Assembly (NCBI GenBank): GCA_023410975.1
Contig: JAEYPG010000150.1
Location: 1 to 57,523 of the forward strand
Reading direction: 5' to 3'
DNA: 57,523 bases
Origin: Pseudomonadota bacterium
Lineage (GTDB): Bacteria > Pseudomonadota > Gammaproteobacteria > Burkholderiales > Burkholderiaceae_C
A model generated the notes under the pieces. That model searched no databases. It was given only the letters and a program-made list of their open reading frames with translations, and was not told the DNA's origin. The position numbers and the translations under genes are program-made. The first letter of the stretch is position 1, and each line of letters begins with the position of its first letter. Shown piece after piece: positions 31,829-33,885 of this stretch.

Positions 31829-32653
31829 ATGGATGACATGGAACTCGATACGGAACACGGGCGGCGCGAACGGCTTGTCCTGGGCGTGGGTCCGGCATTG
31901 CGCTGGGAGCGGCATCTGGGCCGGGACTGCGAGCCGCAGTCGCGCTGGGCTACGTCTGACGTGACGCCCGACGCTCACGCGCGGATCTTCGATCGCGTCG
32001 AGCTCGACGCCGGGCTGACGCTGCGTGACGTGTTCTTGCTGGTGGGCGACAACCGCGTGTTGCGCGCCGTGCTGCACCGGCAGGGGATCGATGACCTGAT
32101 GGCGCATGCCGCGCCCGCCCTGGCGCGTCCCAGGCAGCCCAGGCGCGGGGGCGGCCCGTGCGGCATCGAGTTCCTGGAGCTGTTTCGTACCCTGAACAGT
32201 CACGGCGCGCGCAACGATGTCGAGGGCTTCAGCCAGCTTGCCTTGCGCGGCGTGGGGTTCTTGCTGCGCCAGGATCTGCTGTTGGAAGGTGAGGTGCTGG
32301 GCCGACACGGTGAGCGCGTCTGCTGGGACCTGGGCTTTTCCGCGCTGGATGAGTTGATGGACCTGCCGCTGCGGCTGGCGCAGGAGGTGGTTGTTCTCGA
32401 AGACAAGGCGGCTTGCGACGCGCGCGGCCGCGAGGCGGCACGGTTTCGCAGCGGCGAGACGACGCTGGGCGAGGTGCTGCACGGCGTGTTCCGAGCGCTG
32501 TCCTTCTTCGGCACCCAGTCGCACATCGACGAGCATCTGGAGTGCCTGTCGCTCGACGACGACACGCTGGACGACGCTGTCGATATCAAGACGCTGCTGC
32601 AGCGCATCGCGCGCCCGGCGGCACCGCGACATGACGGAGGCTGCCCGGCATGA
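31829..32653 (+). CDS. Hypothetical protein, paralog of 23836-24573
   Basis: Shared blocks including TLGEVLHGVFRALSFFG. ATGA overlap with the next gene. Confidence 0.75.
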   Translation: MDDMELDTEHGRRERLVLGVGPALRWERHLGRDCEPQSRWATSDVTPDAHARIFDRVELDAGLTLRDVFLLVGDNRVLRAVLHRQGIDDLMAHAAPALARPRQPRRGGGPCGIEFLELFRTLNSHGARNDVEGFSQLALRGVGFLLRQDLLLEGEVLGRHGERVCWDLGFSALDELMDLPLRLAQEVVVLEDKAACDARGREAARFRSGETTLGEVLHGVFRALSFFGTQSHIDEHLECLSLDDDTLDDAVDIKTLLQRIARPAAPRHDGGCPA

Positions 32654-33885
32654 GCATGGGGGCGAACACAAATGGCGCCGGACCCGAGGAGCCGAGCGCG
32701 TCTTGGCTGTCACCCCATGACGAACCGGCGCGAATGCTCGTCATCGAGCAACTAAGGGCCGAGAACGAGAGACTGTCCCACCTGGCCGACATCGCGCTGG
32801 ACCTGGTGGAGCGGGCGTGCCGCAAGTCCACGCTGGCACGACGGCCGACGGTTTCGCTGGTGCAGCGTCAGCTGTCGCTGGGATTTGGCGCTGCGTCGGC
32901 GGCGCTGCAGGAACTCCACCGGCGAGGCCGGTTGCATGACCTGCCCAAGTCGCCTCAGCGGCCTGCTCCCGAGTGCAACGATACCCACGACGATGGTGCC
33001 AACGCACGCTTCGCGATGTCGTCCGTGGCCGGTGTGCGCGCTTTTGGCATGACCCAGGCATCCGAGAATGCAGCCGCCCAGGAAAACGGCGAACCCGGCG
33101 TCTGCAGCGTTGGCATCGGAGCCCGCGCGTGCAGCGTTCTGGCTGCTGCGTCAGCAGCGTCGGCCATGCCGGCCACCGAGCGCCTTGGCGGACTGCTGAT
33201 GTTCTGCGGCCTTGACAGTGACGAGGAGGCCAACTCCATGGCCGTGCTGGCCCGCCACGTGGCCAAGGAGGGCATCGTTGGCCTGGTCGTTGTCATGTCG
33301 CCAGCCGAACCTGCAGCCGCGTGGCAAGCCCGCCTTGCAGCTTGCCTGGAAAAGCTCCGGGACATTGGCGTGACGCTGCTTGCGCCGCAATGCAAGCCTG
33401 GTGCACCCGCGGAGCTTCTGCACCAGGCAACCGGCTCGGCCTTGCGGCTTCACCGGTTCGTGACGCGCTGCGCCCGCTCCGAAGGCATGGTCTGCCTTGA
33501 CCTGGATGACTTGCGTCCGCAGACGGGGGCTGCATGGCGCGCCGCGTTGTCCGTGACGACCACCGTCGAGGGCCTCCTGACCGATGGCTTGGTCATGGAG
33601 CTGCTTCACCGCCCGCTCATTGGCGCACTTCCCGTGGAGCGCACCCAGGCCGTTGTCGCGGCCTTCCGGGGACCCTCGCGCTCGATGCGCCTGACCAGGA
33701 TTCGCGAGAGCCTGCAGGTTCTGCAACGTGGACTCCCGCATGCGGCCAGCATCTCCTACAGCGTGACGGTAGACGACACACTGGCCCATGGAGTGGAGGT
33801 CGAGATCATGCGGCTGGCCATGCTTGAGCATGCGCTGGTGAATGCCGGCATGGTTACGGCGGTGGACACCGAGAAGGAGAGTTGA
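32650..33885 (+). CDS. FtsK-gamma-like winged helix fused to a degenerate FtsZ-like domain
   Basis: [27 protein letters not shown] (gamma). [12 protein letters not shown], FCGL...[32 protein letters not shown] and RPLI...[16 protein letters not shown] are collinear with FtsZ. GGGTGTG is absent. Confidence 0.65.
   Translation: [411 protein letters not shown]

Follow-up and report, generated by a model that had tools for sequence, protein, structure and literature searches.

The window analysed here is one entire contig of 57,523 bases (JAEYPG010000150.1) from a Burkholderiales genome assembly of 757 contigs and 6.17 Mb. On its plus strand, exactly at the coordinates of the initial annotation, lies a gene of 411 codons whose product, P0001, combines a winged helix with a body that resembles the division protein FtsZ and has lost the loops with which FtsZ binds GTP. 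The gene and its parts are:

32650..33885, plus strand: FtsZ-like gene (P0001), 411 amino acids, with N-terminal helix, winged helix, linker and a GTP-binding-dead FtsZ-like body
32713..32802, plus strand: predicted long helix, residues 22-51, nearly identical in the relative P0003
32803..32934, plus strand: winged-helix domain, residues 52-95, closest family FtsK gamma (PF09397)
32935..33168, plus strand: linker or remnant, residues 96-173, predicted local distance difference test score (pLDDT) below 50, without supported FtsZ counterpart; a MAFFT alignment hints at remnants of H1 and T3 only
33169..33483, plus strand: what is left of the nucleotide-binding domain of FtsZ, from S4 to H7, residues 174-278
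33214-33234, plus strand: DSDEEAN in place of T4, residues 189-195
33484..33516, plus strand: T7 synergy loop and start of H8, residues 279-289
33517..33822, plus strand: FtsZ C-terminal (GTPase-activating) domain, residues 290-391, the best-modelled part

On its own, P0001 matches no Pfam FtsZ model at E <= 1, and among PDB sequences it finds only FtsK gamma chains (E 0.17-0.75). The relationship to FtsZ is detected with profiles: profile A2, built from P0001 and its relatives P0002 and P0004 without any canonical FtsZ, matches 37 distinct PDB sequences at E <= 1, all of which are FtsZ, the best being M. jannaschii FtsZ (1w5e, E 2e-9). When the relative P0005 is added (profile A1), 49 of 50 PDB matches are FtsZ and the best E value is 1.5e-30. 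Alignment of A2 with 19 betaproteobacterial FtsZ proteins by hhalign has a probability of 96.85% (E 2e-10, 210 columns) and pairs residues 174-387 of P0001 with residues 89-311 of the host FtsZ. The collinearity with FtsZ claimed in the initial annotation is thus far above chance; the identity of the FtsZ-like body in the FtsZ comparison is only 17-19%. A search with A2 through 401 genomes of this order found matches at E <= 1e-5 in 110 of them, and the best 20 loci are the window itself and 19 canonical FtsZ genes, each with intact signature. The family member scores 6.4e-182, and the next best match in the 400 genomes of the order 6.9e-12. The sole other match in the own genome is the housekeeping ftsZ, located between ftsA and lpxC in the division and cell wall (dcw) cluster. 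Judged by these profile comparisons, P0001 belongs to the FtsZ/tubulin superfamily by descent and is a strongly diverged FtsZ copy.

One genome of the order has a second profile match besides its FtsZ (G432:C2:231204-231533, E 5e-6). It covers part of the C-terminal domain only and lies in a frame of 459 codons, which may encode another FtsZ paralogue.

An exhaustive HMMER search of 1.84 billion representative sequences (E <= 0.001) identified four relatives of P0001:

P0002 (a fragment), 196 amino acids: 76% identity, gap-free, to P0001 216-409 (E 7.5e-88)
P0003, 109 amino acids: 65% identity to P0001 26-106 (E 2.1e-16)
P0004, 324 amino acids: 29% identity to P0001 137-390 (E 1e-11)
P0005, 369 amino acids: 26% identity to P0001 168-387 (E 1.5e-4)

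P0005 is a clear FtsZ-family protein by its Pfam matches (FtsZ_C 76.8 bits, Tubulin 43 bits) and P0004 matches FtsZ_C with 29.3 bits, above the cut-off of 27. P0004 is without the winged-helix module and has, like P0001, an acidic T4 (HEDENGE), followed by the T7 motif VDLDDLR; P0005 is intermediate, with GGQTDAS at T4 and NIDFQDLR at T7. P0003 consists of the N-terminal module only, ends near P0001 residue 115 and could be either a stand-alone module or a broken gene. A word-index search of 5.8 billion proteins returned the query alone and, with A2, only the three input proteins. Genome contigs contained a single relative locus, that of P0004 in Caldimonas; no relative was found in metagenome contigs or viral contigs, megablast of 30000-37000 against a plasmid collection gave no match, and there was no full-length match to P0001 in 60 related genomes. 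By the measure of these searches, the P0001 family is tiny.

The gene for P0004 is from Caldimonas tepidiphila (L009 1869-8153), where it is part of a same-strand row encoding a Metallophos protein, a PF06189 5'-nucleotidase, the FtsZ-like protein, a MoxR-type AAA+ ATPase and a DUF2201_N metallopeptidase. The row adjoins an IS66 transposase gene and possibly forms a separate system. Metallophos and PF06189 genes were considered as a neighbourhood shared with the window and rejected: the two phosphoesterases have nothing but the family motif in common (E 3.1), and PF06189 is common, as it is a single-copy gene in 29 of 36 genomes of the bacterial family; the window and Caldimonas copies are 37% identical. 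The own genome has two PF06189 genes (window 24551-25633 and G000:C409:2450-3370) and none of the five same-genus genomes has any, two copies being odd for a supposed member of the genus.

Losses and retentions in P0001 were read at the positions that are invariant in 13 betaproteobacterial FtsZ proteins, using a MAFFT alignment of 17 sequences (these 13 with P0001, P0002, P0004 and P0005). The T4 signature GGGTGTG (G104-G110 of the host FtsZ) is replaced by DSDEEAN with none of the seven positions kept, and both the match at T4 and its acidic replacement were correctly recognised in the initial annotation. N45, T46 and D47 of T2 are F, G and M in the MAFFT alignment (none of three kept), E137 and G138 of T5 are both Ala (none of two kept) and N164 of T6 is Ala. 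No profile alignment extends before residue 174, leaving no detectable counterpart of FtsZ 1-88 (S1-H3). The T1 columns of the MAFFT alignment land on the winged helix, which is spurious, and the stretch initially taken for T1 is set opposite the T3 loop and H3 (SGLGAGGRPE); its distance of 32 residues to S4 fits T3 (34 residues) and not T1 (about 85 residues), and with the profile alignments starting at 174, this assignment is not supported.

At T7, G203, D208 and D211 of the host FtsZ correspond to G279, D284 and D287 of P0001; all three are kept, and they belong to a set of no more than eight columns without variation across the 17 sequences. The T7 match of the initial annotation is right, the aligned FtsZ stretch being GLVNVDFEDVK, but the loop is not fully intact: N206 is Cys282 in P0001 (Ser in P0004, Asn in P0005). 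P0001 ends 20 residues past the C-terminal domain (...VDTEKES) and, as had been stated from the start, has no tail peptide comparable to that of the host FtsZ (...IPAYLRKQAD). On this alignment, P0001 is without three features of a working FtsZ: the T4 signature, the N-terminal strands and the tail. Compared with canonical FtsZ (PF00091 and PF12327; 1w5e, 2vaw), it shares the collinear S4-S10, the T7 aspartates and the fold of the C-terminal domain, while it has no GTP loops, no detectable S1-H3 and no C-terminal linker or tail, has Cys for the T7 Asn and carries an extra N-terminal helix and winged helix.

Structure models agree with this picture for the C-terminal domain. The alignment-free ESM Atlas model (predicted template modelling score 0.61) matches FtsZ clusters over residues 144-403 with template modelling (TM) scores of 0.54-0.58. 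Single-sequence AlphaFold of P0001 is unusable (pLDDT 41); AlphaFold with the 17-row alignment, which included FtsZ proteins so that the model is not independent evidence, reaches a mean pLDDT of 51.6 and is confident only in the C-terminal domain (71-90, residues ~300-390). The best structural match of model residues 290-391 is P. aeruginosa FtsZ (2vaw_A, Z 9.4, root mean square deviation 2.4 A, 98 residues), and further members of the tubulin superfamily among the top seven rows are S. melliferum FtsZ (Z 9.2), CetZ2 (8.8), CetZ (7.7) and TubZ (4ei7_A, 7.1), interleaved with unrelated folds at Z 7.2-7.4. In a Foldseek search with the AlphaFold model the top 50 rows are all FtsZ, with E values down to 1.8e-11; TM scores are only 0.21-0.33, with a root mean square deviation of ~15 A, because the domains of the model are mis-packed. 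The FtsZ fold is thus supported for the C-terminal domain, where the initial annotation had seen a matching pattern; the N-domain remnant is poorly modelled by AlphaFold. Prediction of a complex between the host FtsZ (8-320) and P0001 (140-400), with an alignment for each and without control runs, speaks neither for nor against binding (scores 0.12 and 0.17, mark 0.32).

The N-terminal part of P0001 begins with a helix that spans residues 22-59 in both AlphaFold models at a pLDDT of only 44-65 and may serve in dimerisation. The following domain had been called a gamma-type winged helix. FtsK_gamma is the sole Pfam match of P0001, and it is sub-threshold: the full-length sequence scores 16.6 bits and residues 20-110 alone 19.9 bits (cut-off 30.6); P0003 does not match this model, leaving one match in two members. 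A two-sequence profile (P0001 20-110 and P0003) finds FtsK gamma in PDB with E 0.034-0.3 and the winged helix of the ribosomal protein eS25 with 0.023. In an hhalign comparison with three FtsK gamma domains the probability is 81% (E 1.2e-5, 35% identity, 52 columns). Six-frame searches of the 60 relatives gave nine weak non-self matches, seven of which fall on query residues ~51-116 and come from frames of 769-1016 codons; each of the three long frames that were inspected ends in an FtsK-type gamma sequence. Residues 52-95 are therefore best described as a winged helix whose nearest family is FtsK gamma: this much of the earlier assignment stands, but with a score below the Pfam cut-off and eS25 scoring equally, P0001 is not a proven member. 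P0001 and FtsK gamma (PF09397; 2j5o, 2ve8, 2j5p) share the type of winged-helix fold, FtsK gamma being the best family for these residues, and differ in that the module of P0001 is N-terminal rather than C-terminal, is not attached to a translocase motor and has a changed recognition motif.

The gene for P0001 is embedded in a group of closely spaced genes, which is preceded by a pair of palindromes and a divergent phosphatase gene:

30499..31443, minus strand: NinI-like (lambda-type) Ser/Thr phosphatase, divergent from the operon (phrog_246, E 2.7e-40)
31525-31543 and 31572-31590, no strand: two exact 19-bp palindromes TGCGACA-N5-TGTCGCA, 47 bp apart, in the promoter region between the divergent phosphatase gene and the operon
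31638..31811, plus strand: small Cys-rich open reading frame, 57 amino acids, with paired CxxC motifs, preceded by GGGAG; first gene of the putative operon
31829..32653, plus strand: P0007 gene, 274 amino acids; ends in an ATGA overlap with the start codon of the P0001 gene
33885..34289, plus strand: gene for a 134-amino-acid protein, translationally coupled to the P0001 gene (AGGAG site, TGATG overlap)
34586..35293, plus strand: gene for a 235-amino-acid protein, after a gap of ~300 bp behind the 134-amino-acid gene; operon membership uncertain

The P0001 gene is preceded by a ribosome site of GGAGG type and shares bases with both neighbours, its start codon with the stop of P0007 (ATGA) and its stop codon with the start of the 134-amino-acid gene (TGATG). 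Its GC content at codon positions 1/2/3 is 0.72/0.51/0.77 and neighbouring genes are alike. By this arrangement, the genes for the 57-amino-acid protein, P0007, P0001 and the 134-amino-acid protein, perhaps also that for the 235-amino-acid protein, read as one operon. A simple scan of 31300-35500 found neither a sigma-70-like promoter nor an intrinsic terminator. Among the sequencing runs carrying the operon region none is on record as RNA; run X3, which we guess to be RNA and which may be DNA, has short identical contigs over parts of the operon.

For the 57-, 274-, 134- and 235-amino-acid proteins, Pfam, PHROGs, NCBIfam, PADLOC, PDB sequence searches and the Atlas yielded nothing usable. The first, putatively zinc-ribbon-like as judged from its motifs alone, has no family match in PHROGs or NCBIfam. 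P0007 has one homologue (P0008, 64% identity, likewise 274 amino acids), no match in Pfam, PHROGs, NCBIfam or PADLOC and a poor Atlas model, and the 134-amino-acid protein has no match in Pfam, PHROGs, NCBIfam, PADLOC or PDB. The 235-amino-acid protein has a D...ExK-like stretch (ELDGV...LEVK) that resembles the PD-(D/E)XK motif of nucleases, so that nuclease activity is possible; it has a weak PADLOC match (PDC-S01, E 0.0044), no PDB match and no relative in the 60 related genomes.

Elsewhere in the window the palindrome occurs only as one copy with two mismatches (8754-8772, just before recC). The expected number is 0.49, and three sites were reached in 2 of 100 shuffles. Palindromes are the usual target shape for dimeric winged-helix regulators, and the two exact copies look like putative operators.

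Sequencing run X1 contains a second allele of the operon region: a 10.9-kb contig spans the whole of 31600-34300, is 97.5% identical and has all frames open; the differences are 68 substitutions and a single insertion of 3 nucleotides that keeps the frame. The following counts of synonymous and non-synonymous differences, with rough ratios of the two rates (dN/dS), are small numbers that rest on 40 of 205 difference rows, all 40 of which are present in X1:

P0001 codons 1-309: 11 synonymous, 18 non-synonymous; rough dN/dS 0.58
P0001 residues 1-105: 6 synonymous, 4 non-synonymous
P0001 residues 106-309: 5 synonymous, 14 non-synonymous; about neutral
P0007: 1 synonymous, 8 non-synonymous; rough dN/dS 2.8; carries the in-frame 3-nucleotide insertion

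Over this short range the counts indicate weak constraint or diversification, and for P0007 they suggest fast or diversifying evolution. Over the long range, constraint on the FtsZ-like body is indicated, because the collinear core and the T7 motif are kept at 29% identity and the identity to P0002 is 76% without gaps.

The operon is part of an island that starts directly after recD; from there on, the contig is a mosaic of 60-67% GC:

8848-18124: recC, recB and recD in a row, ~73% GC
18099-19772: GmrSD_N and DUF7834 protein, type IV restriction-like, overlapping the end of the recD frame
27439-29744: PDDEXK_4 PD-(D/E)XK protein and WYL-WCX regulator, converging with an overlap of ~60 nucleotides
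42293-44365: integrase beside an IS91-type transposase
48250-50957: HNH_2 protein overlapping a methyltransferase-HNH fusion
55342-56391: RepA_C plasmid-replication gene, 21 kb from the P0001 gene and beyond transposases

The PD-(D/E)XK protein matches the PADLOC candidate system PDC-S26 (E 4.6e-34) and lies in a patch of 49% GC; this protein, the WYL regulator and the Ser/Thr phosphatase are encoded within 5 kb. Further genes of the island encode a DDE_3 transposase, an RNase T-like exonuclease, HNH proteins and, at the end, a fragment of PhzF. The regions with the integrase and IS91-type transposase, the HNH proteins and RepA_C look like a mosaic of mobile-element remnants. There is no tRNA gene in the window and no terminal overlap of the contig. 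The locus looks like a chromosomal island with mobile and defence-type genes and is not clearly a plasmid; a chromosomal location is favoured because recC, recB and recD are on the contig, and the plasmid of the initial annotation is made less likely on the same grounds, the RepA_C gene notwithstanding.

What could such a protein do? The reading that we prefer, though only tentatively, makes P0001 a pseudo-subunit which attaches to GTP-bound FtsZ through its T7 face and to which no further subunit can be added. P0001 descends from FtsZ, would no longer bind GTP or be extended on the nucleotide face, and still carries the elements of the opposite face (T7, H8, S9, H10). The T7 face may then dock on the nucleotide pocket of a GTP-bound host FtsZ, either a monomer or a filament end, and the outcome would be a dead-end heterodimer or an end-cap that, because it has no tail peptide, could not reach the membrane. 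The N-terminal helix and the winged helix would provide dimerisation and/or a DNA tether, the palindromes of the own promoter being a likelier target than KOPS (FtsK orienting polar sequences), and a mobile or defence-type element might in this way control division of its host or sense the state of FtsZ. The homology, the pattern of lost and kept motifs, the operon arrangement and the rarity of the family are observed; binding to FtsZ, binding to DNA and an effect on division are all inferred from sequence.

An argument for the pseudo-subunit comes from T7. In FtsZ, the T7 aspartates position the water that attacks the GTP bound by the adjacent subunit, and they act only across the interface (PMC8936486, in excerpt). 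They are invariant down to 29% identity within the family, and because these interface-only residues are strictly kept in a protein without GTP site, P0001 probably still faces a nucleotide-bearing partner; this partner would be the housekeeping FtsZ, for which the genome offered no other candidate. In P0004, although it is only distantly related, T4 has likewise been replaced by acidic residues. The destroyed nucleotide face, the missing tail peptide, the coupling within the operon and the open frames of the second allele also fit this reading. Four longitudinal contacts are described in the same excerpt, with T7, H8, S9 and H10 opposite H1/H2, T3, T5 and H6-H7 of the next subunit (PMC8936486): in P0001 the former set is alignable and partly well modelled, while the latter is lost or scrambled.

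Several observations weigh against this reading. The recognition-helix motif of FtsK gamma, IGYNRAARLLE, is not kept, GYNRAAR..E having become GFGAASA..Q; these are presumably the residues that read KOPS. GGGNAGGG shows no enrichment, with 5 copies in the window where 9.1 are expected, and is absent near the gene, and the KOPS reading of the initial annotation is therefore not supported. The substitutions in residues 106-309 are about neutral between the alleles, and the N-domain remnant has a pLDDT below 65, so that a native-like interface may not be presented. In a published polarity model, filaments grow at the end that exposes T7, with incoming subunits adding by their GTP-bound top face; mutants of the bottom face of FtsZ are reported to be toxic and those of the top face much less so; and N208L, at the position where P0001 has Cys, is reported to abolish assembly of S. 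aureus FtsZ (all PMC8936486, in excerpt). With a dead top face, this polarity model would allow P0001 only on the shrinking end or on monomers and would make it a weak capper of growing ends. Thus, of the DNA-tethered capper or depolymeriser originally proposed, the structural premise stands (dead nucleotide face, T7 aspartates, no tail), but capping of growing ends does not agree with the polarity model in this excerpt.

P0001 could instead be an autoregulatory DNA-binding protein in which the FtsZ fold is re-used for oligomerisation or for contacts with operon partners, with no link to the host FtsZ. Such a regulator would account for the two exact palindromes in the operon's own promoter and for the better conservation of the N-terminal helix and winged helix between the close alleles (4 non-synonymous, 6 synonymous differences); the tight translational coupling with two uncharacterised proteins suggests a complex, and P0003, with its 109 amino acids of N-terminal module only, indicates that the module may work alone. 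We nevertheless consider it somewhat unlikely, as it leaves unexplained why interface-only T7 aspartates are invariant amid a decayed nucleotide pocket, and P0004, which has no winged helix, argues for a function of the FtsZ-like body itself. The near-neutral substitutions in residues 106-309 of the close alleles, the loss of a counterpart to the first ~88 FtsZ residues, the poor folding of the N-domain remnant in models and the very small number of relatives would all be expected of a decaying relic, a duplicated or transferred ftsZ on a mobile element that drifts without function. That is improbable: the 411-codon frame is open in two alleles, has a GC content at third positions of 0.77 like its neighbours and retains start/stop overlaps as well as a ribosome site, P0002 aligns to the C-terminal half gap-free at 76% identity, and a relative at 29% identity keeps the collinear core, the acidic T4 and the T7 motif, which requires long-term selection.

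The surroundings of the operon allow another explanation, in which P0001 is the bait or sensor of an anti-phage or anti-element operon: phage inhibitors of FtsZ would bind the pseudo-FtsZ and either alter the action of the winged helix at the palindromes or release a downstream effector, for example the 235-amino-acid protein. The island holds a GmrSD-type enzyme, the PDC-S26 protein, a WYL-WCX regulator, HNH proteins, a NinI-like phosphatase, transposases and an integrase, the Caldimonas relative is encoded beside a MoxR-type AAA+ ATPase, a DUF2201_N metallopeptidase and an IS66 transposase, and complexes of FtsZ with inhibitors are known immune triggers (PMC13423816, in excerpt). The high ratios of non-synonymous to synonymous differences (8:1 in P0007, 14:5 in the FtsZ-like part) and the extreme rarity and patchy distribution of the family point in the same direction. 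However, the operon proteins match no PADLOC model except for one weak match (E 0.0044), no effector was identified with confidence, the neighbouring genes of P0001 and P0004 differ, viral contigs yielded no relative and a bait does not obviously require invariant T7 aspartates, which together make this explanation unlikely. Still less can be said for partition in the manner of TubZ/TubR, with a DNA-bound tubulin fold that segregates or positions the element and possibly rides on host FtsZ filaments. A winged helix and a tubulin-fold body are indeed joined in one protein, palindromes are repeated nearby, a RepA_C gene is on the same contig and TubZ is among the structural matches (4ei7_A, Z 7.1), but a protein without GTP site would form no cytomotive filament, two repeats are not a centromere-like array, recBCD argues for a chromosomal location, RepA_C is 21 kb off and beyond transposases, and megablast found no match in the plasmid collection; we regard partition as highly improbable. 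The most far-reaching combination would be a mobile island that encodes a DNA-bound FtsZ mimic, with an acidic, phosphate-like loop in place of the GTP pocket and a working T7 face, which plugs GTP-bound FtsZ or acts as a decoy for phage inhibitors and is coupled to expression of the operon by its winged helix at the palindromes; in this complete form, it is doubtful.

Non-canonical FtsZ paralogues have been described before. FtsZl1 and FtsZl2 are encoded beside a normal ftsZ and are thought not to act in division; FtsZl1 has kept the GTP-binding domain, is without T6-H7 and the FtsZ C-terminal domain, has an alpha-helical non-FtsZ C-terminal domain instead and is linked to von Willebrand factor A (vWA) proteins (Makarova and Koonin 2010, PMC2875224, in excerpt). 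Compared by this partial description only, P0001 is the reverse, with the nucleotide loops lost and T7 and the C-terminal domain kept. The relative P0004 adjoins a MoxR AAA+ ATPase and a DUF2201_N protein. DUF2201_N usually accompanies a vWA-like domain.

SulA (PDB 1ofu), MciZ, MipZ and Gp0.4 have the outcome that is proposed here for P0001, in that one longitudinal face of FtsZ is occupied and assembly is blocked or monomers are sequestered; to our knowledge, none of them is FtsZ-derived. MciZ binds to the bottom interface of FtsZ (PMC8936486, in excerpt), whereas P0001 would occupy the top (nucleotide) face of FtsZ by means of its own T7 face. With the type III partition system TubZ-TubR (4ei7), P0001 has in common that a tubulin fold and a winged-helix DNA binder are found on a mobile element. 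TubZ forms filaments with GTPase activity, and the repeat array is bound by TubR, which is encoded separately; in P0001 both parts are fused, the GTP site is gone and there are two palindromes only. Searches of an open-access library returned no paper on a bacterial FtsZ paralogue that has lost its GTP loops and is fused to a winged helix, and an earlier description elsewhere is possible.

Bacterial division is organised around FtsZ, which is often attacked by phages and toxins and is also a drug target, and all characterised protein regulators of FtsZ that we know of are unrelated to it in sequence. If P0001 is an FtsZ mimic, no FtsZ-derived protein that regulates or senses the division machinery would precede it; mobile islands might then carry a wider, so far undescribed class of 'dead FtsZ' cassettes to which it belongs, and it would show that mobile elements can domesticate part of the division machinery itself. 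An FtsZ derivative with one polymerisation face only could also serve directly as a tool for studying the polarity of filaments and the dynamics of their ends. Should P0001 be only a re-used scaffold or a relic, it would be a curiosity of protein evolution. The observation itself is solid and unusual; the functional statements we infer from the sequence.

One further protein of the window, encoded at 5897-7417, has 506 amino acids and a weak match to the dynamin family of GTPases (26.7 bits, cut-off 27).

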